A stretch of 64,000 nucleotides of DNA from the sequence record PX246731.1, one strand, 5' to 3'. Under the pieces are notes generated by a model that ran no database searches, had not been told where the DNA came from, and worked only from the letters and a program-made list of their open reading frames with translations. The DNA is from a phage. The position numbers were made by a program, and so were the translations under genes. This document shows, piece by piece, positions 91 to 47,441 of this stretch. How positions within the stretch are numbered: position 1 is the first letter of the stretch; each line of letters starts with the position of its first letter.

Positions 91-105
91 ACATGCTCCG
101 CATGT
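91..105 (+). promoter_or_regulatory. N4-type vRNAP early promoter hairpin (6-bp stem ACATGC/GCATGT, 3-nt loop TCC)
   Basis: Inverted repeat with 3-nt loop; template-strand loop GGA; followed by ttatgga; same architecture recurs at 927 and 1187; upstream of first early ORF. Confidence 0.55.
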
Positions 106-147
106 TATGGACATGTCGTCCTATCATCAACTATTGGAGCTATCATC

Positions 148-471
148 ATGACTACTCAAGCTACTGTACGTATGACCGCAGGAACTTTACTTGGTACTGT
201 TAACTCAGCTGCTACTACTGTTGCAGATACATTTAGTACTGCAACTAAAGCAGTAGGTATGCTTAATTCATATGTAAGTACTATGGCAGAGAAACAAGCC
301 ATTCGTACTAAATTAGAAATGCATACCTTTGTTAATAAACTGGCAGAGGAAACAGCTATGACTGAGACTCTGCGTAAGAAAAGTATTGAGGAATTCTGCA
401 AGGATTCAGAGAACGCTCGTATCTATAACGCAGAATATTCCAAAGTAATTGACATCCTGACTAAAGACTAA
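148..471 (+). CDS. hypothetical early protein (107 aa)
   Basis: ORF with ATG start, followed by intrinsic terminator at 479-505. Confidence 0.6.
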   Translation: MTTQATVRMTAGTLLGTVNSAATTVADTFSTATKAVGMLNSYVSTMAEKQAIRTKLEMHTFVNKLAEETAMTETLRKKSIEEFCKDSENARIYNAEYSKVIDILTKD

Positions 472-478
472 ACCACTT

Positions 479-505
479 AGGAGACTCTTCGGAGTCTCCT
501 GTTTT
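479..505 (+). terminator. rho-independent terminator (GGAGACTC-TTCG-GAGTCTCC + T-tract)
   Basis: Perfect 8-9 bp stem with UUCG tetraloop followed by TGTTTT. Confidence 0.75.
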
Positions 506-561
506 GAACATTAGATAGATAGTCAAAAGTAGATAACTATCTACTTTAAGGAAAGAAAATC

Positions 562-921
562 ATGACTAAATTCCGTTGTATCAAAGGTTCTGTTGCCGTA
601 CCTGTTGGAACAATTATCGTAGGAGAATTGGAAGGAGAACGTATCCGTCTTACCGAGGATTCTACTGTCAGAGATTCTGACAACAATCCTTACTTTGTAG
701 AAGGAGAAATGGTTCCACTAACTGGTTATGTATGGCAATGGGAATCCTGTGAGGGAGAACCAGATAAGGAAGAACTACTGGAACGCTTTGAAGTTGCAGT
801 AGATGTTCTTGCAACCTATGAAAGAGACATCCTTGAATATGGTGAGTCAGATATTGACCACCCCAAAGCAGAGCAAGAGTATGAATCTGCTAAGGCAGAA
901 TTGCTCAAACGTTTGTCTTAA
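562..921 (+). CDS. hypothetical early protein (119 aa)
   Basis: ORF preceded by AAGGAAAG RBS-like sequence. Confidence 0.6.
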   Translation: MTKFRCIKGSVAVPVGTIIVGELEGERIRLTEDSTVRDSDNNPYFVEGEMVPLTGYVWQWESCEGEPDKEELLERFEVAVDVLATYERDILEYGESDIDHPKAEQEYESAKAELLKRLS

Positions 922-926
922 AAACC

Positions 927-941
927 AGAAGCTCCGCTTCT
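927..941 (+). promoter_or_regulatory. N4-type vRNAP early promoter hairpin (AGAAGC-TCC-GCTTCT)
   Basis: 6-bp stem, 3-nt loop; reverse complement GAAGCGGAGCTTC resembles the N4 P2 hairpin core as I recall it; preceded by AAAACC and followed by tattgga as at 1187. Confidence 0.65.
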
Positions 942-965
942 ATTGGATACAATCAGGAGACAGTC

Positions 966-1181
966 ATGAACGTAGAAAATATCCGTATAATTGAGAATTG
1001 CTTTAGCAATAAACCTGTAGACCTCAACAACGCAAGAAGGTCTACTGATAAAGAGTATGGAGAGTTTCTATCCTTACTAGATGAATATCGTATGCAAGGG
1101 CATGTTGAATTACATGCCTATCTGCATAACTCAGGCTACTTCATGGATAAACTGGAAACTAAAACAGGCTGCCCATTCTGA
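966..1181 (+). CDS. hypothetical early protein (71 aa)
   Basis: ORF immediately downstream of promoter hairpin. Confidence 0.55.
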   Translation: MNVENIRIIENCFSNKPVDLNNARRSTDKEYGEFLSLLDEYRMQGHVELHAYLHNSGYFMDKLETKTGCPF

Positions 1182-1186
1182 AAACC

Positions 1187-1203
1187 AAGATGCTCCGCAT
1201 CTT
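1187..1203 (+). promoter_or_regulatory. N4-type vRNAP early promoter hairpin (AAGATGC-TCC-GCATCTT)
   Basis: 7-bp stem, 3-nt TCC loop, preceded by AAAACC and followed by tatgga; third copy of the motif. Confidence 0.65.
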
Positions 1204-4543: not shown

Positions 4544-4894
4544 ATGAAAGAAATCTTAGTATTCACTACCAATGTACTTGGGCAGCATAACAATGCTGCT
4601 GCCAAATTAGCTTATAAGAAACACGGTGCTCGCTGGGGCATGGCCTATGGTCATTATGGTAATAGCTTTGCCATTCCAGTAAAGGATGGCTATGGTAACC
4701 GAATTAAAGTGAGTGCTATCTATGGCTTCATTGAAGGCTTTATTGCCTATGCATCTTCTAATCCACAGTGGGATTTCAAAGTCATGAGTAATGACTATTT
4801 GGACCCATACCAGTTTATCAATGTTACTGGCAACGTACTGTTACCAGAAGCATGGCGTAAACACTTAGGTGATGCTTACAACTACTGGAGCTAA
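4544..4894 (+). CDS. hypothetical protein (116 aa)
   Basis: ORF; no family recognised by eye. Confidence 0.5.
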   Translation: MKEILVFTTNVLGQHNNAAAKLAYKKHGARWGMAYGHYGNSFAIPVKDGYGNRIKVSAIYGFIEGFIAYASSNPQWDFKVMSNDYLDPYQFINVTGNVLLPEAWRKHLGDAYNYWS

Positions 4895-5162: not shown

Positions 5163-5177
5163 AGCTGCTCCGCAGCT
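5163..5177 (+). promoter_or_regulatory. hairpin AGCTGC-TCC-GCAGCT: fourth vRNAP-type promoter hairpin or intrinsic terminator
   Basis: Same 3-nt TCC loop and 6-bp stem as the three early promoter hairpins, but followed by TTTT and placed after a gene end; lies directly upstream of the RNAP II genes. Confidence 0.4.
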
Positions 5178-5210
5178 TTTGGTTATTAATCACATTTAGG
5201 AGAATAAGCG

Positions 5211-6029
5211 ATGTACTCATCTATTGAACATCAGAAGCAACTCGAAAAACTATTCAATAAAAATCAGCTCTTGCCTCGTATGAGGAAGGAATTCGAGGAC
5301 TCCAAAGAAATTGACTTTAAGGCATTCGCTGCCTATTTAGAAATTGATTATAAGCTGCTCATTGATGCAATGGTGCAGATTGCCCTACATAAACGTGCTG
5401 ACATTCAGACTATGATTGGCTCTCTCATGAGTCACTCAGATGATGCTCAGTATATCGCTGACTGTCTGTATAAGATGGCAGAGAATGACTGCTTCAACTA
5501 TGACCCTACCATCGACAAGTTCGGTGTTATTTATGAGATTAGTGAAGATGTACAGATGGAACTGGAAGCATTCCAGTATCCATTACCTATCGTAAGTGCT
5601 CCTAAACCTGTTAAGTGTAACCGTGATACTGGTTACTACGAGAGCAGAGGTAGCATCATCCTCAAGAAGAACCATCATGAGATGGATGTCTGTCTTGACC
5701 ACATCAACCGCATGAATAACCAACGTCTCTGTATTAACTGGGACGTTGCTAACTATGTAAAAGACTCCCGTCCTAACATGGATAAACCCAAAGAGGGTGA
5801 AACCCGTCAGGACTATGAGAAACGTGTCAAAGCCTTTGAAAAGTACAGCCGTACAGCTAAAGAAGTAATGGAGTTAGTGACCAAAGAAGGTAATAACTTC
5901 TCCTTGGCTCATCGTTACGATAAGAGAGGGCGTACATATGCCTGTGGTTACCACATCAACTATCAGGGAACCAGCTACAACAAAGCTGTACTTGAGTTCG
6001 CTGATAAGGAGTTAGTAAATGAAGACTAA
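5211..6029 (+). CDS. phage RNA polymerase II small subunit (N4 gp15-like, N-terminal half of a T7-like RNAP)
   Basis: 272 aa, close to the N4 gp15 size; paired with the following 405-aa ORF carrying the HDCF motif. Confidence 0.65.
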   Translation: MYSSIEHQKQLEKLFNKNQLLPRMRKEFEDSKEIDFKAFAAYLEIDYKLLIDAMVQIALHKRADIQTMIGSLMSHSDDAQYIADCLYKMAENDCFNYDPTIDKFGVIYEISEDVQMELEAFQYPLPIVSAPKPVKCNRDTGYYESRGSIILKKNHHEMDVCLDHINRMNNQRLCINWDVANYVKDSRPNMDKPKEGETRQDYEKRVKAFEKYSRTAKEVMELVTKEGNNFSLAHRYDKRGRTYACGYHINYQGTSYNKAVLEFADKELVNED

Positions 6030-6236: not shown

Positions 6237-7454
6237 ATGCAACTGTTAACCGCTAAACAATACCTGAAAGTAGATATTGCGAACTCATATGGCTTAGATA
6301 AAAAGACGTGGGATGAACGTATTGCCTGGTTCGATGAGAACGAAGCTAATCTGCTTAATCTGGTAGATGAGGCTGAAGATTCTGCTCTGTTCTTTGCTGG
6401 TATAAATGCATGGAATGATATGAAAGCTGGTAAGCCTATCGGTTATGCCGTAGCTCTGGATGCTACATCCTCTGGCTTGCAGTTACTGGCCTGTCTGACT
6501 GGTGACCGTTCTGCTGCTGAACTGTGTAATGTAGTTAATTACATGGGAGAGAATGGTAAGCCATTACGTCGTGATGCTTATACAGTTATCTATCACAAGA
6601 TGCTGGACATCCTTGGCGAAGCATCACGTATTAAACGCAGTGACACTAAGCAGGCAGTTATGACTGCATTCTACGGTTCAGAAGCCAAGCCTAAAGAAGT
6701 ATTCGGTGAAGGTATTCGTCTCAAGACTTTTGAGAATGTAATGGAAACTGTTGCTAGTGGTCCTTGGGCACTTAACAAGTTCTTACTGCAATGTGGTAAC
6801 CCGGATGCTAACCGTTACATATGGATACTGCCTGACAACTTCCATGCTGTCATTAAGGTAATGGTTCCAGAAGTACAGACTGTTAACTTCTTAGGTAAGC
6901 CATTCGACATCACTCGTATGGTTCAGGGTACTGAAGAGAAGACCCGTATGCTCTCTGCTAACATCACCCACTCTATTGATGGGATGGTGGTACGTGAGAT
7001 GCTGCGTCGTTGTAATTTCGACCGTGAATTAGTGGAAGCTGTGCGAGAACTCTGCGATGAAGGTCCATCAGAATATGGGGAGATTGCAGGTAACCTGGAG
7101 AAGGTACAGGAGTTGTGGAGCCATTATGAAAAGTCTGGCTTCTTATCCGTATCAATCCTGGACTATCTTGACCCATGTACTATTGCTTATGTAGACCGTC
7201 AGGTAGTAGCAGATATGATTGATACTATGCCTAAGAAGCCATTCCCTATAATGACTGTGCATGACTGCTTCCGTTGTCATCCTAATTACGGTAATGACCT
7301 GCGTCGTCAGTACAATCAGATTCTGTCTGACATCGCTAAGAGTGACTTACTGGGCTTCATCCTGTCTCAGGTATTAGGACAAGAGTTCTCTGCTGGTAAG
7401 CTGGATGACAACCTCTGGCAGGACATTCTTGAAACAGACTATGCATTAAGTTAA
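6237..7454 (+). CDS. phage RNA polymerase II large subunit (N4 gp16-like, T7-like RNAP catalytic half)
   Basis: 405 aa; TVHDCFRCHP resembles T7 RNAP motif C (HDSF). Confidence 0.7.
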   Translation: MQLLTAKQYLKVDIANSYGLDKKTWDERIAWFDENEANLLNLVDEAEDSALFFAGINAWNDMKAGKPIGYAVALDATSSGLQLLACLTGDRSAAELCNVVNYMGENGKPLRRDAYTVIYHKMLDILGEASRIKRSDTKQAVMTAFYGSEAKPKEVFGEGIRLKTFENVMETVASGPWALNKFLLQCGNPDANRYIWILPDNFHAVIKVMVPEVQTVNFLGKPFDITRMVQGTEEKTRMLSANITHSIDGMVVREMLRRCNFDRELVEAVRELCDEGPSEYGEIAGNLEKVQELWSHYEKSGFLSVSILDYLDPCTIAYVDRQVVADMIDTMPKKPFPIMTVHDCFRCHPNYGNDLRRQYNQILSDIAKSDLLGFILSQVLGQEFSAGKLDDNLWQDILETDYALS

Positions 7455-7461
7455 TAAACTA

Positions 7462-7494
7462 GCCTCATTCCTTCGGGAGTGAGGCCTATTTTTT
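7462..7494 (+). terminator. rho-independent terminator (GCCTCATTCC-TTCG-GGAGTGAGGC + T-tract)
   Basis: 10-bp stem, UUCG loop, CTATTTTTT. Confidence 0.8.
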
Positions 7495-7511
7495 GCTTGG
7501 AGATAACAACT

Positions 7512-9078: not shown

Positions 9079-9408
9079 ATGAAAACTTTACTTAAAGGTA
9101 TTGCAGTAGCTGCACTGATAGCTTTGGCTCCAAATGCACAAGCAATTGAGCCAGAACCAATTCTGGAAGGTGCTCAGGCTTATCTGGATGACACTCGCGA
9201 TGCGTTCGGACAAGGATTCTTCATGGGCAGTATGATCTCTTACATCGAGAGCACAAATAACTGTGTTCCGGATGGTATGAAGTATTCCGACATTCTACCT
9301 AAGATTGCCAAAGTAGTTATTTATGATTCTGCAATCCTCAAATTGAAGAATACATCTCAAATTGTCGTGTACTCCGTACACAAGGCATATCCCTGCACTA
9401 AATCTTAA
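9079..9408 (+). CDS. secreted/periplasmic protein with signal peptide (109 aa)
   Basis: N-terminal MKTLLKGIAVAALIALAPNAQA signal-peptide-like sequence. Confidence 0.5.
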   Translation: MKTLLKGIAVAALIALAPNAQAIEPEPILEGAQAYLDDTRDAFGQGFFMGSMISYIESTNNCVPDGMKYSDILPKIAKVVIYDSAILKLKNTSQIVVYSVHKAYPCTKS

Positions 9409-9442
9409 TCAGTAATCCCATTAGCTTTAGGAGAGTAAGTAA

Positions 9443-12243
9443 ATGGCAAGCATCGACTCCTTGACTGTATGTAATTCACGTCAAGCTCGTAACTTTATTA
9501 TCCGTGCCCTGAAAGCAGGTAACGTACCGTTCCTGACTTCATCACCTGGCATGGGTAAATCTGCAATCATTCGTTCTATTGCAGAAGAATTTGGTATGAA
9601 GTTAATTGACCACCGTCTATCTACTTCTGCCCCGGAAGACCTGTCTGGCTTACCTTTCCGTAATGGTGACCGTGCAGAGTTTATTCCATTCGCTGACTTA
9701 TTCCCCATTGAGGGAGACGAAGTACCAGAAGGCTATAATGGCTGGCTCTTATTCCTTAACTGACGGGGCTTCATGAGAGCAATCTCATGTCGAAAGTTAC
9801 CTAAACAGGGAACCTCTTCTAATATGGTTGGCTCAGGTGTATACTTGAGTTTTAATCAATTGGAGACAATCCTGTGCTAAATAATGAAATTTGGAAAGAT
9901 GTGCCCGACTTACCGTATGAAGTTTCCAACTTTGGTGTAGTACGCCGAAAAGAAGGAAAGTATAAATACAAAAATAGGACACATATAAAACCGTATCTTA
10001 ATAACAAAGGGTACTACTGCGTGAACCTGTACATGAATAGTAAAGTGTACAAATATCAAGTTCATCGTCTGGTAGGCATAGCCTTTGTACCAAACCCCAA
10101 TAACTATCCAGTTATTAATCATATAGATGGAAACCCTCTTAATAACCACGAGAGTAACCTGGAATGGTGTACCCAGTCCCAAAATATTAAACATGCTTGG
10201 GATACTGGATTATTGTCAAACAGACATGCCAACGCTAGTAACAAAAATCGTGGAGGCTCCTCCAAATACGTAGGTGTATCCTGGAGTGAGCAAAGACAAA
10301 GATGGTGTGCCCATATAAGGGTTAACAAGAAATCTATTGGTTTGGGACGTTACAAAACAGAGGAAGAGGCTGCCAAAGCCTATGACTCCTACGTAACTAA
10401 CAACAATCTTACACAGATTGGGTACAGTACCAATTTCATTTAAACGCCAAACGACTATCGAAAACACACAGAAATGTGGAAGTGAGTAGAGTAGGGTGCA
10501 AGCCAATGGCACTCGAAACGGTAACAGCCCTAGCAATAGGGCTTTGATATAGTCTCCTCTGCATGGTGACATGCAGCAGTCAGTATTCACTGAGTGTACT
10601 GACGGCATTAGTAGTTGCGAACTAATGTGAAGATAATGCGACGAGTTCAACTCAGCTAAGAAAGAAGTAGTAGCTGCTGCATACAAGCTGATTCTCGACC
10701 GTATGACTGGTCAGAAAAAGCTTCATCCTAACGTGATGATTGTCTGTGCTGGTAACAAAGCTACCGACCGTGCCATTGTTAACCCATTGGGTACTGCAAT
10801 GCAGTCTCGTGTGGTTCACTTTGAAATGGAACTTAACTTCGACATCTTTGTTGAAGACGTAATGATTCCTCAGCAATGGGATGAACGTCTGGTTGCATTC
10901 TTACATGCTAACCCAGGTTACCTGCATGACTTCGACCCAGCACACAAGAACAAAACGTTCTGTTGCCCACGTAAACACACTGCGATTCAGGGGAGTAATT
11001 CCCTGTCTAAAGCTGCCTAAAACGGGAAACACTTTACATTCTGTTGCCTAAAGGTAATATGTAAAAGTCAATCCGTTACTAAATTGGGAGTCAGCATGAG
11101 TGAGATTTGGAAAGATGTTGTTGAATTTGAAGGTTTATACCAAGTATCTAATACAGGTAAATACCGTAAGCATGAGTCACGCCAATCTGTAAATAAGTAC
11201 AGAGAAGTTAAGCCCCTTATCAGGGCACTTAACAAGAACCGATTAGGTTATCTGTATGCCTCTATGTACAAAGATGGGAAGACTCATAAGAAAACTATTC
11301 ATCAACTCGTTTGTGCAGCATTTAAACCAGGCTTTAAGTATGGTGATCCTGTTAACCACTTAGATGGTAATAAGGAGAATAACCATGAAGACAACCTGGA
11401 ACCATGCACCGCACAAGACAATAATCTCCATGCTCATAAAACTGGGCTAGCCCCTAAACCAGGTAAGTCTGTGTACCACAATGTGCACATACGTCGTAGT
11501 AAGTATAAAGATAAAATTTACACTTATTACGAAGCCAAGGTTAAAGATAATTACAAGGTAGTATTCTACAAACAGTTTAAAGATGAGGTAGCTGCTGCTA
11601 AAGCCGTAGATGCCTATCTGGACTCAATTGGGGATACTAGACGTAAACGTAATTTCTGACTTCCATAAATGTCCAACGACTATCCCGGGGAGGGAGTAGA
11701 GCATAAGCCAATGATGCTCGAAATGGTAGCCACCCTACAGGTAATGCTAAGGGTGTTGATATAGTCTAGTCTGCATGGTGACATGCAGCAGTTCATAAGA
11801 GAACGGGCGTAGTCTTGCGAACTACGTCGAATATCACGACCTGGGACTTTGTTAATAAAGACCTCAAGAACCTACCGGAAGGTGCTCTGCCTGATGAGGA
11901 TTCTATCTACTATGCAGGACACGTTACTGCTGGTAAGGCTACAGAGTTTGTTCAGTTTACACAGGTGTACAATCGTATCATTACGATTGAGAAAGTAGTC
12001 AAAGACCCACTGGGCTGTGCACTACCGGAAGATAACAACCTGTGCTGGGCTACTGTTAACCATCTGGCTAACAAAACTACTGAAGAGAACTTCGCTGATG
12101 TTCTTCAGTACATTGAACGCTTTAAAACGTTCACCCATAAGATTCTGTACTTCCGTACAGTAGGCAATGCATTACCAGATCTTCAGGCTACCCCTGAATG
12201 GCGTAAGGCTGCTGCTAATATCTCTCGCTATATTCACGGATAA
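9443..12243 (+). CDS. AAA+ ATPase (MoxR/AAA_5-like) split into three exons by two group I introns; predicted exons 9443-9756, 10639-10972, 11839-12243 (351 aa after splicing)
   Basis: Walker A SSPGMGKS in exon 1; joining exon 1 to exon 2 recreates Walker B LLFLDEF; all three exon frames are continuous and sum to 1053 nt; splice points approximate. Confidence 0.6.
9757..10638 (+). mobile_element. group I intron 1 (approximate ends) carrying an HNH homing endonuclease ORF
   Basis: Contains sequences matching group I core elements as recalled: P-like CCTAAACAGGGAA, R-like CAACGACTATC, S-like TGATATAGTC; intron ends in G and the 5-prime exon ends in U under the proposed junction. Confidence 0.55.
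9874..10443 (+). CDS. HNH homing endonuclease with C-terminal AP2-like DNA-binding domain (intron-encoded)
   Basis: HNH-type His/Asn motif (HRLVGIAF...NHIDGNPLNNHESNLEW) and AP2-like YVGVSWS...RWCAHI...GRYKTEEEAAKAYD; GTG start with GGAGA RBS. Confidence 0.7.
   Translation: MLNNEIWKDVPDLPYEVSNFGVVRRKEGKYKYKNRTHIKPYLNNKGYYCVNLYMNSKVYKYQVHRLVGIAFVPNPNNYPVINHIDGNPLNNHESNLEWCTQSQNIKHAWDTGLLSNRHANASNKNRGGSSKYVGVSWSEQRQRWCAHIRVNKKSIGLGRYKTEEEAAKAYDSYVTNNNLTQIGYSTNFI
10973..11838 (+). mobile_element. group I intron 2 (approximate ends) carrying an HNH homing endonuclease ORF
   Basis: Shares P-like GCCTAAAACGGGAAAC, R-like CCAACGACTATC and S-like TGATATAGTC plus the 3-prime TTGCGAACTA block with intron 1. 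Confidence 0.55.
11096..11659 (+). CDS. HNH homing endonuclease with AP2-like domain (intron-encoded, paralogue of 9874-10443)
   Basis: N-terminal SEIWKDV...EGLY motif shared with the first endonuclease, HNH core and AP2-like C-terminus; ATG with GGGAG RBS. Confidence 0.7.
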   Translation: MSEIWKDVVEFEGLYQVSNTGKYRKHESRQSVNKYREVKPLIRALNKNRLGYLYASMYKDGKTHKKTIHQLVCAAFKPGFKYGDPVNHLDGNKENNHEDNLEPCTAQDNNLHAHKTGLAPKPGKSVYHNVHIRRSKYKDKIYTYYEAKVKDNYKVVFYKQFKDEVAAAKAVDAYLDSIGDTRRKRNF

Positions 12244-20464: not shown

Positions 20465-22513
20465 ATGAAAATCGAACTGATTTCTATCATCGCACTGGCA
20501 GTTGACAGTCGTAATCTTACATTGTGGAAGCCTGATGGCTCCACGATTGTATATCCTCAGAGCGACCCACGGGTTGCTCGCATTGTATCTGAAGCACAAA
20601 CCAAAGGTTTGGGAACTACTAAAGACCAGATAGAAGTAAACATTGCACCAGAAGAAAACCTGCGTACTGAATATCTGGAAGCAGAGAAGAACACTAATGG
20701 ATTCGTCCGTTTCTTCAAGGTAGCTAAAGCTAAACTTAAAGAGTTCTTCCAGGATGGTACAGGTGTCCAACCTGCACACATAGTCTCAGATATTAAGTTG
20801 GGTAATCCTACTAAGACATTAGTATCTAAAGCCATGGATACCTTCCTGGCTGTACAGGCTAATGAACCAGAAGTAACAGTAGTAGATGGTTGTTATGACA
20901 GACGTGACAACCTGATGTGGGTTACTGGCTGGGATAAGGACCATAACCATCTTGCACTGGTTCGCTTTATTAACGATGTATTGTATTGGGGTTATGTCCA
21001 TACCGACCGTATTCTTGCACAAGAGTGGCCTATTGCAATTCGTGCAGTATCCGATGATGAAATGAGTGAGTTTGCTAAACAAGCTAAGCACATCAAAGGA
21101 GTACACATTGTATTTACCAGTCGTGATGTAACTCCATTTCCTTACGTAGAAGTAGCTAAAACTACGAACCAGGATAAACTGGCTGCTGCTTCTGAGAAGT
21201 TAGCTGCATTGGGGGCTATTAGTACCGATGATGCTAACTTCCATACTGATGTGAAAGAAGATGAGGTGGTTGTTGCTGTTACCAACAATGGGGTTATCCC
21301 TGGGGTTGAAAACCTGCATCGTCACTTACGTCAGTCTGCCAAGCTTAAAGACTACAAGGGCTTTACTAAGTTCCTTGAACGCCTGGCTCCGGTTATTAAA
21401 GACCGTCTGCACTCAGTAGAAGACCTGATGAAGTTCATGGAGACTGCTGAATTACCTATTGCTGATGATGGTTCAATCCTGTTCCTGAAACGCCTGCAGT
21501 ATAAAGGCAACGAAGATGGTAAGCGTGTATTCGTTGACTGTCACTCAGGTAACATCAAACAGTGGGTAGGTTGTAAAGTGCAGGTACGTGAAGACCTGGT
21601 AGACCCTGACCGTCGTCAGGACTGCTCAAATGGTCTGCATGTAGCATCCATGAGTTATATCCGTAGCTTCGGTGGTAATGTGACCATCCTTGGTAAAGTA
21701 GCACCAGAAGACGTATTTGCTGTTCCTCAGTACAACACTAATAAGATGCGTGTATCTGCGTATCATATTATTGCTGAACTACCGGAAGAGGAGCGTAATA
21801 ACGTTAACAATGGTATCTACCTGTCTAAGACAGAAGTAGGTAAAAAGCTGCTTAATGATGCCATCGTTGGTAACCATAGTTCACCTACCACACTTATTAT
21901 GGTTGGTGGTCATTATGGTACTAACCTCAAATACACTAATCTCACATCTGGTTCTGTAGAACAATTCCGTACAATTGCTAGTAAAGAAGCACTGAACATG
22001 GAAGAGTCACTGAATGAAGCTGTAGCTGCTGAACCAGTGAAGGCTACTGACCTTAAACCTGTTATTAAGAAGGCTCCTACTGTGAAAGAACAAATCCAGG
22101 AACTGGTAAAAGAGTTCCTCAATGCAACAACACCAGAAGATAAGTTAGCTGCTGCTGATTTGCTTGTGGAAATGCGAGGCAAGGCTCGTAAGCCATGGGC
22201 TGCTTTAGGTGTTAGTTCCGATGTGGTGGATGCAATTGCTACTATCCGTAGTACTCGCATTCCTGTACCTAAAGCTGTTAAGCAGGATAAGACAGTTAAA
22301 CCTACGCGTTATGCTACTGCCACTAAAGTAGCTACGTCTGGTAAACACGCTGATAATCTGCGAAGCATCCTTAATGATACGACGTACTCTGACTATCAGA
22401 AAGGCCATGCTCTGCAAGACTATAAGCGTCATGCTAAGAAGTCATTCACTGCAATGGGTCTGACTGAGGAAGAAGCTAAGTTAGCTACCAATCTGGTCAA
22501 AGCTGCTAAGTAA
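20465..22513 (+). CDS. rIIB: rIIB-like protein
   Basis: 682-aa ORF immediately downstream of rIIA-like gene; assignment by synteny. Confidence 0.5.
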   Translation: MKIELISIIALAVDSRNLTLWKPDGSTIVYPQSDPRVARIVSEAQTKGLGTTKDQIEVNIAPEENLRTEYLEAEKNTNGFVRFFKVAKAKLKEFFQDGTGVQPAHIVSDIKLGNPTKTLVSKAMDTFLAVQANEPEVTVVDGCYDRRDNLMWVTGWDKDHNHLALVRFINDVLYWGYVHTDRILAQEWPIAIRAVSDDEMSEFAKQAKHIKGVHIVFTSRDVTPFPYVEVAKTTNQDKLAAASEKLAALGAISTDDANFHTDVKEDEVVVAVTNNGVIPGVENLHRHLRQSAKLKDYKGFTKFLERLAPVIKDRLHSVEDLMKFMETAELPIADDGSILFLKRLQYKGNEDGKRVFVDCHSGNIKQWVGCKVQVREDLVDPDRRQDCSNGLHVASMSYIRSFGGNVTILGKVAPEDVFAVPQYNTNKMRVSAYHIIAELPEEERNNVNNGIYLSKTEVGKKLLNDAIVGNHSSPTTLIMVGGHYGTNLKYTNLTSGSVEQFRTIASKEALNMEESLNEAVAAEPVKATDLKPVIKKAPTVKEQIQELVKEFLNATTPEDKLAAADLLVEMRGKARKPWAALGVSSDVVDAIATIRSTRIPVPKAVKQDKTVKPTRYATATKVATSGKHADNLRSILNDTTYSDYQKGHALQDYKRHAKKSFTAMGLTEEEAKLATNLVKAAK

Positions 22514-45600: not shown

Positions 45601-47441
45601 AAGCTATCCATAGACATGATGTTGTCATACATCTGGATTGCAGCTTCCATTTGAACGTTAGGGTCTTCGGCAGTATTAACCAAGTCAGCCATCTTCTGAA
45701 TAGCTTCAACACGGTTAGTGGAACCAGAAACAGCTTCACGGATTGCCGGGCTAGCCTGTTCCAGTTCTACTGGGTCAAACTTCATTACCTGAGTTAAGTC
45801 AGCAGCATACTGTGTAGCAGCAGCTTTCTCTTCAGGAGAAATGTCCATTGCATCTACTGCTTCCTGAACAGTTGCCTGTGCCTGTTCTGCCTGAGCAGTA
45901 GCTTCTTGTGCAGCAGCGTTAACCGTAGCATCAGATACAGGGGATGCTTGCTCATTACGCTTAGCAACTTCTTCACCACGCTGAACCAGGATGTTAGTAA
46001 TAGGTGAAGCTACTTTCGCTAATGCTTTACCAGCCAGAGAAGCACCAGCCAGGGTAGTACGTACAGCAGGACCTACGGCAGCACCAGCAGCCTTAACAGT
46101 TGCACCAGGAGCTTGAGCAACTCCAGCACTACCGAAGCCATACAGTGCACCAAGCCCGGTTTGTTCACCCACACCTTTAAGCAAATCACGATTAGCATCT
46201 ACATTACCTTGAATTGCTTTGTTCTGTGCAAACTGACTTGTACCAGACTGGATACCTTCTTCTACAGTCTCACGCAGCATGTTAGAACCAGCTCCAGCCA
46301 GTGAACCTACCTTAAGTGGGTTAAGTTCAAACTTGGATACCAGTGGAGCAGTAAGAGCAGCAACTGGAGCAGTTAAGCCAGCAGCAGTGATACCTGTTTC
46401 AGATGCAGTCTGACGACGTGCTTCTTCAGGAGACAGACCATCTTTAATATGCTGTTGGTATACAGGAGATTTAGCAGCCAGTTCACTGAACGGCATTTCC
46501 ATAATTTCATTAGCAGTCTGCTGGTATGCACCACCAGCTTCCATACCACCAATTGCTATAGCAGGTGCAGCAACACGACCAGTAGCTAATGCAGTACGTG
46601 CAGGACGCGAACCTAATTCAGCAGCTAGGGTAATACCCTTAACAGCTTTATCACCACCTACCATTACTTTACCAAGTGCAGATACACCACGGATAAGTGG
46701 ACCACCAGTAAACAATGAACCAACACCCTCAGCCAGACCATCTGTAGCAGCCATGCCATTAGATAAGGTGTTAGCAACAGAATCATAAGCATCACGACCA
46801 ATTCGAGATAGGGAAGCAACGAGTTCACTTTCTCCTTTATCAATATCTTGCTTATAGAGTTTCTCATTCTCCTGAGCAGATATTACGTTCTGGTTCTGTA
46901 CTACATTACGGCGAGCATTCAGTGCATCAGACTGTAGGTTGTGTACACCTTTATTTAACCAGTCAAGACCGGAAGCAGTGGATGCCCCGGCATTATCATT
47001 GACCAAACCTGTGCCAAGAGCAGCAATGCCCCCAAGGGTATTAGCAACACCAAGACCAACACCAGAAAGGGTATCACCAAGTGCTTCACCATATGTACGA
47101 CTCTTAGTTAAATCACGACGAACAGCATTAGCTGCATTGACACGAGCATTGAGAATGTCCATTCCTTGCTCATTGCCATACTTGTTTATGATTTCAAGAG
47201 GAGAGGCATTAGTAAAATCTGCCTGAATAGAACCTGGGTTAAATGCACCAGCACCTAAGTTACCAGCACGGCCTGCCTGTAATTGGTAGGCGTTCTGTGG
47301 GGTTAATTGGAAAGGGTTTTGCCCTTGTTCAGCTTGTTTCCGAGAGGTTGCAGTAGAGACATCGACTTGCTTAGCAGTAGTGATGCTGTCTGCGAAACCT
47401 GCCAGACGGTCAAATGTTGACATAGCATGATTCCTGTTCAA
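36636..47441 (-). CDS. virion-encapsidated RNA polymerase (vRNAP, N4 gp50-like), 3601 aa
   Basis: Single uninterrupted 10.8-kb ORF, the size class of N4 gp50; sits with RNAP II genes and hairpin promoters. Confidence 0.85.
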   Translation of the reverse strand: MNRNHAMSTFDRLAGFADSITTAKQVDVSTATSRKQAEQGQNPFQLTPQNAYQLQAGRAGNLGAGAFNPGSIQADFTNASPLEIINKYGNEQGMDILNARVNAANAVRRDLTKSRTYGEALGDTLSGVGLGVANTLGGIAALGTGLVNDNAGASTASGLDWLNKGVHNLQSDALNARRNVVQNQNVISAQENEKLYKQDIDKGESELVASLSRIGRDAYDSVANTLSNGMAATDGLAEGVGSLFTGGPLIRGVSALGKVMVGGDKAVKGITLAAELGSRPARTALATGRVAAPAIAIGGMEAGGAYQQTANEIMEMPFSELAAKSPVYQQHIKDGLSPEEARRQTASETGITAAGLTAPVAALTAPLVSKFELNPLKVGSLAGAGSNMLRETVEEGIQSGTSQFAQNKAIQGNVDANRDLLKGVGEQTGLGALYGFGSAGVAQAPGATVKAAGAAVGPAVRTTLAGASLAGKALAKVASPITNILVQRGEEVAKRNEQASPVSDATVNAAAQEATAQAEQAQATVQEAVDAMDISPEEKAAATQYAADLTQVMKFDPVELEQASPAIREAVSGSTNRVEAIQKMADLVNTAEDPNVQMEAAIQMYDNIMSMDSFINRDPGALANLEQGSPAANIVDQFSGLMANVQNTPKVLRAFRAIHSMIQEQAEAGKLKATEKANQAQANNIAMAADMSPEVLDADSVNMVLKHASEGKITLGNRQRAALQSAAALLQGAREFDAKAEELGLRPQDIVSKQIKTDESRSNEGQYSALQHAKRIRSAYNSGNFDLASAYLDDFMKFAQHMQNKVGALNEHLISGNADKNKSVHYQALTPSREWVRSRTGLGVNPYDTKSVKFAQQVGLEAKTVADIANALATAYPELNVSHVKVTPLDSRLDKPAAQVVKEFRQGNLDAAQSQQTNEPVNQVDEAPVIKQEPVTPTVQTKPSVSEAVKTEPTIKESKPQTVKEPENQSEKQDIVEQPTESERDSYVKENTISQDTLNKYGDRRDSPWLFADGTVVGSNGDHISLSDVFGHDGYRDMSLDTGAVRSTFYKGSEQPFVSLQLFDNQKLTAEQFNTVQSFVEANNALIQIGVDTSGLNTNNVEKEEVSLAQLKADYTVGGKPLSGMEAVFPVYNNEKTPNQFLKAFSLPEEPKSRTIGSESPLTDVKKALSSAARFEAFTQKENNALTSDVIKRYQDLFEFGETLKTTLSDRLAKFLANKNVGKRFAEGTEANRWVGGKLLNIVEKDGDTFKFNDQLLETAVLAGLQWRLTATQNAAIKDMQDVAAITGVNASLLPEGILAEFENAQTLVEATNSLAQKIESYWGLNRNADAPLGYTKGIPMAMATEILSSLIEMGEVKESMLDVSEIDPESNKTIGLYTIEKLDDTDAINKFPTAIEEAVLVEPVEKLYFGDDIPPVAHTQLRNPAVRNTPEQKAALKAEQATEFFVHTPMVQFYEALGKDRILELMGAGTLDKDLLNKNHAKSLEGKNRSVEDSYNQLFSVIEQVRAQSEDISSVPIHYAYNMTRVGRMQMLGKYNPQSAKLVREAILPTKATLDLSNQNNEDFSGFQLGLAQALGIKVHKMTRETMSEELTKALEGKLKPAVDMMVEFDKSGYLPTDAVNILTTSLGNDKSFVALMALMEYARYLNSDDRANFNTPLYVEADGVTNGPINAMVLMTGGKFTPNWIKNTAKGGLFFGKAGKTMNEHHTQEDSVDLYEASTNSLQFYLNELRNAYSKNIPVINQMDHLQKLMDLFIKDFNLNEDGTLDLKRGIAKNPLTITIYGSGARGIAGKMVSAITDTIYERLSDVLKARAVDPNISPAMAMFGKEAASEADAQAMLDTFLTSMKALTGNIPAKRKGKLFIKEVDGVLTGKLDPQEFTVSGDALKNLQENMLHFFVEPMRQGIRFTVGDGLMQSTENLQKATQIQSLVLQDMFQQAVQAKLAEKEKDPTWKKGDFLTQKELNEIQNSLAPLAPMIETGSQTFYIAGSENTDVANQVLATNLDDRMRVPMSIYAPSQAGVAGIPFMTIGTGDGMMMQTLSTMKGAPKNTLKIFDGMNIGINDITDASRKANEAVYTSWQGNPIKNVYESFSKFVKNVDLNKLSDSAIDAIAKSALDFEQRTHIARVDGDRDYKISMIKDSGIALIERNLRNIALGVDIRHKVMDQVQVTVDQMAAVGAPYVNNGKISLEGLTVDQQVAKLNELFDAELNKRRDAVRAAKAEPVKEVPAMEQVGRVLKSGVRLLSNTAITKLAKEMSPEQQEVLKEIQKSLAAKDYKVVYGTPSQLDAYAIEKNITRPAPEDIEAAEAGNAYGWTNFEDKTIYLVTPSLETLVHELVHASTFESVLAHYEGTPNEAVQNIEDLMNQFRALDVNDESPAVREAYADALNTINGHLSNGFIEPAMAKAAALNEYMAWGLTNRELISKQKKTTALKTMVQAVYEAIKRLVFGRKKAPANADDMFSGLLFNSAVVMRGQAPTAAVAKDTTLFHNKAYGDNTRLEELGKTFDKLITNYIGSEPVQQVIRKGKFSDAVVNATKVTRDVQAHGFTMNMQEQRLFTNIVAALATEAAINPAAMARAQEYYTHVTKNLTVEAFMADPDSTNPADRYYAQQKFDTIMGANNIEFDAQGRSSLLPTFVGLAMVSEEVRKVLADIPVMKADKKSGNTVDAMLTNIGTAAMASLNARVAGDTKATNVQEGMDALAQTIMQTSLNAESFYDSVATPTGNAIDRANQYLVDSIDVLSTRALEGAREVAANTKNPLVKGAAHAAQLVAAIATEKNGSIVAEGVMAAMNQGKVWQPFHDLVNDIIGRTKSNASVYDLIKAVRAQVQADRQQFREHLPTTIAAKFSRKLTNDEWKAMHTGMGKTDLAVLRDTMSLDEIRDLLTDQKIVDREVNKLEADLQKQAGRNWPLINRKSKQLAQYMINGTVGNNLLRNATAISRLLGERKTTRSVVDVAQLDKLITLYALEAMNKIDREMLSSLAQTEIEGMDFATSYLVGQRKDEMAKAKSDSRATLNQYKGYIPGETKQGVNLIVAEDSQFADLIEKSYVRLGTYQGSSANRGSARSYYFAPVQAQAPFSQGILQNVRNTAGGVDLGTGFTMGTMVAGRITDKPSVDRITKALARGERGNEPLLPVYDANGNVVAYEQSIDPNMLKHIEGENHLARAIGVWRGRQVEEAKAQRFNDMLIENLHSMYENDIKMSASNKSQYVNLLGSKLDPVTADALKLMNSETRQKAESLFGPGELWVRRDMLNDALGYRAASVGDAWSGNSRWSPETLDTFKKAMLGVFGNRAYKYVMGGENLVQNLVKEAKTLIVVKSVVVPAVNFLANLYQMVARGVPVKNIAKSIPQKTAEINQYLKSRLRQVDAEAELRAATNPNQIRKLKAEIQSISDSHKRLSIWPLLEAGEFSSIADAGIGRDDILITEGKLHEYMDKLADKLPKSVRNAGRYALITKDTALFQGIQKTVEYSDFIAKAIIYDELTQRKGKTREEALGRVTEEFINYDRLPGRFRGYMESVGLMWFYNFKIRSAKVAVSMIRNNPVHAAMAMLAPTPTMFGNVGLPIQDNIFSIAAQGNLGYSFGFGQGLRAHTLNPWLNLTN

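Follow-up and report, generated by a model that had tools for sequence, protein, structure and literature searches.

Four predicted hairpin promoters of the N4 virion RNA polymerase type at the left end of a G7C-like coliphage genome

The early promoters of phage N4, termed P1, P2 and P3, are reportedly the subject of work by Haynes and Rothman-Denes in 1985, Glucksmann in 1992, Dai in 1998 and Gleghorn in 2008. A promoter for the N4 virion RNA polymerase (vRNAP) is built around a GC-rich heptamer centred at -11 with inverted repeats on both sides, where the template strand presents -12A, a purine at -11 and -10G in the loop (T-Y-C on the coding strand), together with a G:C closing pair, a G at template -8, a C at template +1 and a purine at template -1 (PMC4496689). 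These rules were taken from that 2015 review and the sequence of N4 P2 from a 2026 cryo-EM paper (PMC13492108). In N4 the vRNAP transcribes gp1, gp2, gp15 and gp16 (PMC13434306), and the scan described below, when applied to the left 12 kb of the N4 genome, returns exactly three sites, which lie upstream of gp1, gp2 and gp15. The site upstream of gp2 has the sequence of the published P2 oligonucleotide (PMC13492108); on the basis of the scan and the statement in PMC13434306, the hairpins at 90-102 and 4546-4562 would correspond to P1 and P3.

Related arrangements are found in other members of the family. The Pseudomonas N4-like phages LUZ7, LIT1 and PEV2 have small left-end hairpins, read by a virion RNA polymerase, in which the 3-nt loop is conserved and the start is a G (PMC3715699), although their stems are of 4-5 bp and they belong to other phage genera with other hosts. 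In LUZ7 there are nine early start sites, some early starts are without hairpins, and the starts have been measured at 13-14 nt from the hairpin centre (PMC9163698), such that the N4 rules are imperfectly transferable within the family. In the Klebsiella phage KP8 (Kaypoctavirus; MG922974) four promoters, P1-P4, have been predicted ahead of gp1, a gp1.2-like ORF, gp2 and the gp15 region, all of them with GCTCCGC as the core and TGG at the start (PMC6950046).

The window considered here, a stretch of 64,000 nucleotides (PX246731.1), covers the left 64 kb of the genome of a G7C-like coliphage (Gamaleyavirus, Schitoviridae) that is 93% identical to St11Ph5 over the first 3 kb. An earlier, sequence-only reading had proposed three promoters of the N4 type at its start, namely the hairpins ACATGC-TCC-GCATGT at 91-105 (6 bp stem), AGAAGC-TCC-GCTTCT at 927-941 (6 bp stem) and AAGATGC-TCC-GCATCTT at 1187-1203 (7 bp stem). 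All three are real, but the count missed a fourth hairpin of equal quality, AGCTGC-TCC-GCAGCT, at 5163-5177, which is followed by TTTGG. The flanking motifs that had been described are likewise in place: AAAACC lies directly 5' of hairpins 2 and 3 (921-926 and 1181-1186), its first A in both cases completing the upstream stop codon, and the TATGGA or ATTGGA reported after hairpins 1-3 provides a TGGA downstream of all three, with a G at the loop centre +11. The four loop centres are at 98, 934, 1195 and 5170, and the GCTCCGC core is found only at 95, 931, 1192 and 5167 when both strands of the 64 kb are searched.

How exceptional are these structures within the genome? If every stem of 6 bp or more around a 3-nt loop is counted, the 64 kb hold 46 hairpins, a number that in itself favours a view of the four as chance palindromes without function. 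When the loop is restricted to TCC and the stem to at least 6 bp, five hairpins are found on the + strand and none on the - strand, whereas 300 dinucleotide-preserving shuffles gave 0.23 on average and never more than 2. The fifth of these, GTGTAC-TCC-GTACAC at 9367-9381, does look incidental and was rejected as a promoter, as it has an A at template -8 and a pyrimidine at -1, falls within the 3' end of ORF 9079-9408 and is unconserved, with a TCA loop in EC1-UPM and no hairpin in G7C, PhAPEC7 or U1G. A 5 bp hairpin at 9920-9932 (AAGTT-TCC-AACTT) was also set aside, being without the GC core and inside a homing-endonuclease ORF. With the full N4 rule set (a C-T[C/T]C-GC core, a stem of 5 bp or more, a pyrimidine at -1 and a G at +1) both strands of the 64 kb yield four sites, where 1000 shuffles averaged 0.006; all four are on the + strand within the first 5.2 kb, and the middle and late regions of the window have none. 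A relaxed scan, with a 3 bp stem and -1 and +1 left free, adds one match in 64 kb, on the - strand at 22363, which has a 3 bp stem, a TTC loop and a C at +1. Hairpins with other pyrimidine loops (TTC, TCT, CCC and others) and stems of at least 5 bp are absent from the first 12 kb of the window. The earlier reading would have been undermined by an equal frequency of stem-TCC-stem hairpins in the late region; a pattern search of the whole window detected none beyond 10 kb. At curated thresholds the whole window had no match in Rfam, as would be expected because the elements are predicted to be DNA promoters and not RNA families.

The hairpins are also maintained in relatives. Alignments of the regions upstream of gp2 and gp15 were made from 10-11 related phages. 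At the gp2 site 95.7% of the stem cells are paired and three of the seven pairs have changed on both sides, while at the gp15 site pairing is complete (100%) and two of the six pairs have changed on both sides; for these alignments none of 500 shuffles reached the observed percentage paired or the covariation score, and sliding the 3' partner by 1-3 columns reduces pairing to 5-65%. At both sites it is the structure rather than the stem sequence that is conserved, with bases varying while pairing is kept, and compensatory stem changes are seen in other genera as well. Variation among relatives is confined to the remainder of the stem, and the loop sequence, the GC closing pairs and the TGG downstream do not vary. 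A search that imposed no requirement on +2 or +3 collected 31 different promoter sequences in 17 related genomes and contigs; +2 is a G in every one of them (31/31) and +3 is an A in 24. A pattern scan of IMG/VR for P1-like sites gave 13 loci, several of them from the isolates KP8 and G7C, and added some stem variants but little new diversity. The sites are on one strand and are intergenic or at a gene end, and the notion of functionless palindromes, to which virtually no probability is attached, is refuted by the shuffle counts and by what relatives conserve.

The correspondence with the N4 rules extends to individual positions. At all four sites a stem of 6, 6, 7 and 6 bp, respectively, encloses a 3-nt loop, where TCC on the + strand gives GGA on the template, and each has the G:C loop-closing pair (template -13G:-9C) and the G at template -8. 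The base at centre +11 is a G in each case, followed by a G at +2 and preceded by a T at -1, and the starts are thereby predicted at G109, G945, G1206 and G5181. When folded with DNA energy parameters the template strands each adopt exactly these hairpins, with energies of -4.2 to -5.7 kcal/mol and z values of -2.4 to -3.5. The start of the window is only a few bases away from the genome ends in the deposited sequences of relatives, and the hairpins are at the left, first-injected end and oriented rightward, upstream of the gp1, gp2 and gp15/gp16 homologues.

In comparison with N4, the hairpins that begin at 91, 1187 and 5163 correspond in position to those ahead of gp1, gp2 and gp15, and the N4 sites share the stem of 5-7 bp, the 3-nt loop with GGA on the template, the G:C closing pair, the -8G, the GG start 11 nt out, the left-end location and the rightward orientation. 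The stem of N4 P2 (AAGAAGC/GCTTCTT) is nearly that of hairpin 2 of the window (AGAAGC/GCTTCT), and the N4 hairpin upstream of gp15 is nearly identical to hairpin 4. The two phages differ in that N4 has three sites and the window four, the extra one serving a small gene absent from N4; in that the first N4 hairpin has a TTC loop and 5 bp where that of the window has a TCC loop and 6 bp; and in the stem sequences at the gp1 and gp2 sites, which in the window are not those of N4. The N4 promoters have been defined experimentally, and those of the window are predicted from sequence. With KP8 the layout is identical and its sites are, like those of the window, computational predictions; KP8 differs in its stem sequences and in having P4 ahead of an extra small ORF before gp15.

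The window also encodes a cognate polymerase. The vRNAP gene is located at 36636-47423 on the - strand, encodes about 3595 aa from the ATG and matches the N4 vRNAP structures with E = 0; its product is 68% identical to N4 vRNAP overall and 73% identical in the polymerase domain. Eight of the nine promoter-contact residues are kept (K114, R119, W129, K268, K849, K850, D901 and R904), the exception being K267, one of the two beta-hairpin lysines, which is an N. The kept W129, R119, K114, D901 and R904 are those that in N4 touch -11G, -10G, -9C and -8G. This enzyme is predicted to be the one that reads the four promoters. The proposed match to the N4 vRNAP early promoters is upheld in that every sequence-level rule testable here is observed, the cognate vRNAP is present and the stems co-vary, and the four hairpins are very probably early promoters of the virion-encapsidated single-subunit RNA polymerase of this phage.

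Promoter 1 (91-109, + strand) comprises the hairpin at 91-105 and the predicted start G109 (GGA), with a template fold of -4.7 kcal/mol and a z of -2.66, and it would correspond to the hairpin ahead of gp1 in N4 that is taken as P1. It probably lies inside the direct terminal repeat; in a relative, Mimir124, the annotated terminal repeat is of 403 bp. Of the related genomes and contigs that were compared, 10 contain the identical 27-mer of promoter 1. Downstream is the gp1 homologue (148-471, + strand; 66% identity to N4 gp1; phrog_5020). Promoter 2 (927-945, + strand; hairpin 927-941, predicted start G945) is placed 21 nt upstream of an early ORF of 71 aa (966-1181, + strand) that belongs to the G7C gp1.2 family (phrog_20790, function unknown) and gave no Pfam match, N4 being without both this gene and this promoter site. 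In an alignment of relatives a TCC-loop hairpin is present at the promoter 2 site in 8/8 sequences, with three different stems, and the KP8 equivalent carries the annotation 'early promoter'. In G7C, EC1-UPM and Moo19 the equivalent hairpin is closed by T:A and not C:G, a closing pair that is not predicted to work under N4 rules and should impair extrusion, and the activity of promoter 2 is therefore the least certain of the four.

Promoter 3 (1187-1206, + strand; hairpin 1187-1203, predicted start G1206) is placed as P2 is in N4, immediately ahead of the gp2 homologue (1217-1690, + strand; 68% identity to N4 gp2). The gp2 protein is the single-stranded-DNA-binding cofactor of RNA polymerase II. 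Promoter 4 (5163-5181, + strand; hairpin 5163-5177, predicted start G5181) is upstream of the genes for the two RNA polymerase II subunits, the homologues of gp15 (5211-6029, + strand; 66% identity to N4 gp15; phrog_2166, N4-like RNA polymerase) and gp16 (6237-7454, + strand; 66% identity to N4 gp16; phrog_2051), which are predicted to form one early transcription unit from this promoter. By both position and sequence its counterpart in N4 is AAGCTGC-TCC-GCAGCTT at 4546-4562, the hairpin ahead of gp15 and presumably P3.

Hairpins 2, 3 and 4 start no more than 6 nt from an upstream stop codon, a position that would also suit structures acting in the RNA, as factor-independent terminators or as stability elements for the genes that end there, and the hairpin at 5163-5177 appears on the terminator scan list with TTTGGTTATT following it. 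Such a role is nonetheless very improbable, as stems of 6-7 bp around a 3-nt loop are short, what comes after hairpins 1-3 is TATGGA or ATTGGA and not a T-run, hairpin 1 has no upstream gene, and a terminator has no need of an invariant loop, GC closing pairs and a downstream TGG. A G+C-rich stem followed by a T-run, as in an intrinsic terminator, is not what is found at these sites, with 5163-5177 alone passing a lenient scan, whereas far stronger canonical terminators are present on the + strand at 1700-1719 and 7462-7485. The terminator-like hairpin after gp2, with its T-run, spans 1700-1729 (8 pairs, TTTATTTTTA tail) and the strong one after gp16 spans 7462-7495 (10 pairs, 6 of them G-C); the PhAPEC7 record has an annotated terminator at the equivalent position to the latter. 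A further terminator-like hairpin follows gp1 at 479-505 on the + strand (AGGAGACTC-TTCG-GAGTCTCCT then GTTTT), which is a perfect 9 bp inverted repeat that falls just under the T-run threshold of the terminator scan. The early region had been placed at 1-5 kb; its left-end location holds, while its right limit has to be moved because promoter 4 would drive gp15/gp16 up to the terminator at 7462-7485, and the vRNAP-transcribed early region probably runs to this point, at about 7.5 kb.

A compromise would be that the hairpins are DNA promoters that additionally cause pausing or partial termination of vRNAP in read-through RNA, insulating the early units from each other. The promoters directly after stop codons, the T-run at 5163-5177 as the special case, and the TTTT before the GG start at the 5163 site, N4 P2 and N4 P3 would fit with this, but promoters 1-3 lack a conserved T-run and the second role is a mere add-on to the main explanation; we regard it as unlikely.

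Other polymerases might in principle use the same sites, since these lie upstream of genes in the correct orientation, and the middle promoters of LUZ7 are hairpins as well (PMC9163698). RNA polymerase II of N4, however, is reported to start at T and to recognise sequence motifs, not hairpins (PMC9163698), and the downstream gp2, gp15 and gp16 would need to be expressed before RNA polymerase II exists, because they encode that enzyme and its cofactor. For the host sigma-70 RNA polymerase, no sigma-70-like hexamers are found at the four sites and matches to sigma-70-type promoters are depleted in 1-10 kb (6 against 27.5 expected). It is very improbable that the hairpins are promoters for RNA polymerase II, serving middle genes, or for the sigma-70 enzyme.

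As early promoters for the vRNAP, the four hairpins may be envisaged to operate as in N4. The left genome end and the vRNAP would enter the cell, after which supercoiling by host DNA gyrase would allow the inverted repeats to extrude as small cruciforms; host SSB would melt the non-template hairpin and leave the template hairpin in place (PMC4496689). The latter would be unusually stable on account of its 5'-GGA-3' loop and G:C closing pair, and would be bound by the vRNAP through base contacts to -11G, -10G, -9C and -8G. The RNA would begin with GG opposite the template CC, at a distance of 11 nt downstream from the centre of the loop. In this process the four promoters would give rise to rightward transcripts for gp1, for the 71-aa gp1.2-family ORF, for gp2 and for gp15 and gp16, and these early transcripts would set up middle transcription, gp15 and gp16 being RNA polymerase II.

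How did the promoter set come to be four rather than three? A module of 33 nt, consisting of the stop codon, AAAACC, the hairpin and TATGGAT, is present in two copies, at 916-948 and 1177-1209, which are 79% identical. It is conceivable, if doubtful, that the set grew from the three of N4 by duplication of this module and that a hairpin lengthened by CC/GG controls the start. The upstream CC and the GG at +1/+2 could lengthen the extruded hairpin over the template start bases, and a DNA fold of the template strand of 1183-1209 does add a CCA/TGG helix; if true, the longer hairpin would control access to the start site, or extrusion, in a way undescribed for N4. Four promoters would also match the speculation in PMC13492108 that a virion carries about four vRNAP molecules, one for each promoter.

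Hairpin promoters are ordinary and well known in this phage family, the four-promoter layout is already predicted for KP8 (PMC6950046), and the understanding of the system is unchanged by the present analysis. Its main value is in annotation. The early units of a G7C-like coliphage are fixed as gp1, the 71-aa ORF, gp2, and gp15 with gp16, from predicted promoters 1-4, respectively, and the 31 natural variants, among them the T:A-closed hairpins of G7C, EC1-UPM and Moo19, make up a comparative set for the positions that the enzyme tolerates. The deposited records of St11Ph5, PhAPEC7, U1G, EC1-UPM and G7C contain no promoter features in their first 11-12 kb, and the rule set used here could annotate these genomes directly.

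Promoters of the virion RNA polymerase (vRNAP) of phage N4 are conserved from -17 to +1, where +1 is the transcription start and negative positions are counted upstream from it, and contain a GC-rich heptamer centred at -11 with inverted repeats on either side (PMC4496689, Lenneman and Rothman-Denes review). On the template strand the loop consists of -12A, a -11 purine and -10G, closure of the loop by a G:C pair is required for extrusion and stability of the hairpin, the polymerase specifically recognises -11, -10, -8G and +1C, the -1 purine stacks on the initiating GTP, and transcripts carry GTP at +1 and +2 (PMC4496689). In coding-strand form these rules become stem-C-T-Y-C-G-C-stem; the base at -1 is a pyrimidine, +1 and +2 are both G, and the start at +1 is 11 nt downstream of the loop centre. 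A scan of both strands of the window that required the core, at least 5 bp of stem, a -1 pyrimidine and a +1 G returned four sites on the + strand (loop centres 98, 934, 1195 and 5170) and none on the - strand, against a mean of 0.006 for both strands together in 1000 shuffles. The GCTCCGC core heptamer is confined to these four sites within the window, the predicted starts are G109, G945, G1206 and G5181, each with a second G directly after it, and all four template strands fold into the expected hairpin at -4.2 to -5.7 kcal/mol (z-scores -2.4 to -3.5) under DNA energy parameters, which omit the added stability that a sheared G:A pair gives to the GGA loop.

Hairpins 1-3 (91-105, 927-941 and 1187-1203) had been proposed as N4 vRNAP-type promoters in a sequence-only reading, and they lie exactly where that reading placed them, with flanking AAAACC and TGGA motifs and the full N4 rule set; the list was, however, incomplete. 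Scanning the whole window for 3-nt TCC-loop hairpins with a perfect stem of at least 6 bp gives five on the + strand and zero on the - strand (mean 0.23, maximum 2, in 300 dinucleotide-preserving shuffles), all within the first 9.4 kb, and thereby adds 5163-5177 (AGCTGC-TCC-GCAGCT; hairpin 4) and 9367-9381 (GTGTAC-TCC-GTACAC), both on the + strand. The last of these, despite its perfect 6 bp stem and TCC loop, is treated as an incidental look-alike: it is without -8G and the -1 purine, it falls within coding sequence at the 3' end of ORF 9079-9408, its loop is TCA in EC1-UPM, and G7C, PhAPEC7 and U1G lack it.

The 70 nt downstream of 9367-9381 (about 9395-9445, upstream of gp24) are nearly invariant across relatives and may be the site of a middle promoter. 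The gp24 (AAA ATPase) homologue itself, at 9443-12240, is in three coding pieces (9443-9760, about 10556-10972 and 11839-12240), whereas that of G7C is uninterrupted. Each insertion holds one NUMOD4 + HNH_3 homing-endonuclease ORF (9874-10443 and 11084-11659), and Rfam group I intron matches below the curated threshold of 50 bits occur at 11615-11788 (32.6 bits, E = 5.5e-6) and 10266-10576 (18.9 bits, E = 0.07); both insertions in this gene are probably group I introns.

In its first 3 kb the window matches G7C-like coliphages (genus Gamaleyavirus, subfamily Enquatrovirinae, family Schitoviridae), best of all St11Ph5 (93% identity over 93% of the query), whose record position 1 aligns with window position 8. 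About two dozen deposited phages share positions 40-140 at 100% identity, many of them holding the stretch in two copies, as expected for a terminal repeat; the relative Mimir124 has an annotated direct terminal repeat of 403 bp. These matches to G7C-like left ends and signs of a terminal repeat indicate an N4-like genome of about 72 kb, of which the window is the left 64 kb. At its left terminus, upstream of promoter 1, there is a 20-nt imperfect inverted repeat (2-21 and 55-74, 75% complementary).

In the first 12 kb of N4 (NC_008720) the same scan finds exactly three sites, upstream of gp1 (90-102, GTTGC-TTC-GCAAC), gp2 (557-573, AAGAAGC-TCC-GCTTCTT) and gp15 (4546-4562, AAGCTGC-TCC-GCAGCTT). 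The cryo-EM oligonucleotide of the published early promoter P2 contains CCAAAAGAAGCGGAGCTTC (PMC13492108), the reverse complement of the 557-573 hairpin, so that the gp2 site is P2; we infer that the gp1 and gp15 sites are P1 and P3. N4 vRNAP is reported to transcribe gp1, gp2, gp15 and gp16 (PMC13434306), whose homologues in the window (148-471, 1217-1690, 5211-6029 and 6237-7454, respectively) share 66-68% protein identity with them. Hairpins 1, 3 and 4 thus stand at the positions of the three N4 hairpins, since the ORFs downstream are the homologues of gp1, gp2 and gp15. That the hairpins might instead be middle or host promoters is excluded by logic because the genes downstream encode the middle polymerase itself, and sigma-70 hexamers are absent at these sites. 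Unlike the window, N4 is without the gp1.2-family gene that hairpin 2 precedes, a 71-aa ORF of the G7C gp1.2 family at 966-1181 (phrog_20790, no functional annotation).

Left ends of G7C, St11Ph5, PhAPEC7, U1G, EC1-UPM, Moo19, KP8 and several IMG/VR contigs were also scanned, and in every complete one gp1, gp2 and the gp15 region are each preceded by a full-rule hairpin, as is the gp1.2-like ORF in some. In alignments anchored on gene position, independently of the hairpin, the stem sequence varies while the hairpin is retained. Upstream of gp2, where the stems read AAGATGC, AAGAAGC, GACGC, AGACGC, GGCTGC and AAGACGC, 95.7% of cells are paired and three of seven pairs have changed on both sides; neither the percentage paired nor the covariation score was attained in any of 500 shuffles, and pairing falls to 29-57% when the partner columns are slid. 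Upstream of gp15 pairing is 100%, with 2/6 pairs changed on both sides. All 31 distinct promoter sequences have G at +2 and 24 have A at +3, neither base being a search requirement; 28 have T at -4. Hairpins 1-3 are unlikely to act as terminators, as they have no T-run and their loop and downstream TGG are invariant; termination may occur, as a secondary effect, at 5163-5177 only.

Among the four sites, confidence is lowest for promoter 2, given that (i) it has no N4 counterpart and (ii) the equivalent hairpin of G7C (795-809, AGCTGT-TCC-ACAGCT), shared by EC1-UPM and Moo19, is closed by T:A rather than the C:G found necessary for extrusion in N4. Either the gp1.2-upstream promoter is weak or dead in these three phages or the closing-pair rule is looser than in N4. 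Promoters 2 and 3 lie in two copies of a 33-nt direct repeat (916-948 and 1177-1209, 79% identical) composed of a stop codon, AAAACC, the hairpin and TATGGAT. Most relatives, KP8 and Moo19 included, have an A-rich stretch that ends in C(C) before the corresponding hairpins, and when the template strand of 1183-1209 is folded as DNA, the CC upstream of the hairpin can base-pair with the GG region at +1/+2.

Hairpins resembling terminators lie after gp1 (at 479-505, an inverted repeat read from the sequence), gp2 (at 1700-1719) and gp16 (at 7462-7485). The early region had been set at 1-5 kb; transcription by vRNAP would instead most likely extend to about 7.5 kb, because promoter 4 is predicted to serve both gp15 and gp16. 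Matches to the sigma-70 consensus are strongly depleted in 1-10 kb, about 4.5-fold (6 against 27.5 ± 5.6 expected from shuffles), which fits a region that the host polymerase does not read during early infection. Between the gp1 terminator and ORF 562-921 lies a perfect 10 bp palindrome with a 2-nt spacer, AAAGTAGATA-AC-TATCTACTTT (526-547). The gp2 message from G1206 would have a leader of just 11 nt before the tentative ATG start at 1217, with no obvious ribosome-binding site between, an arrangement also found in N4; the gp2 PHROG profile spans residues 32-157 only, and some relatives annotate gp2 from an internal ATG at 1310 preceded by GGAG.

The vRNAP is encoded by a giant ORF on the - strand (36636-47441, ATG at 47423), the central domain of which matches N4 vRNAP structures (E = 0), and it aligns with N4 gp50 at 68% identity overall and 73% in the polymerase domain. 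All reported base-specific promoter-contact residues are unchanged, namely K114 and R119 (-10G and -11G), W129 (stacking on -11G) and D901 and R904 (-9C/-10G and -8G), as are the backbone contacts K849 and K850 and the catalytic residues; of the beta-hairpin lysines K268 is retained and K267 is N. Such unchanged recognition residues agree with the identical promoter core.

Knowledge of vRNAP-type hairpin promoters in N4 dates from 1985-1992. Many N4-like phages have predicted ones (PMC3715699), and those of LUZ7 have been mapped through start-site sequencing (PMC9163698), the spacing and promoter repertoire of LUZ7 showing that variation is possible within the family. Klebsiella phage KP8 has four predicted promoters, published (PMC6950046) and annotated in GenBank, which share the arrangement and GCTCCGC core of the window. 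The deposited records of St11Ph5, PhAPEC7, U1G, EC1-UPM and G7C hold no promoter features. With the class so long known and the records of these close relatives bare of such features, the sites predicted here would simply be further members of a well-known class, new and as yet unannotated.
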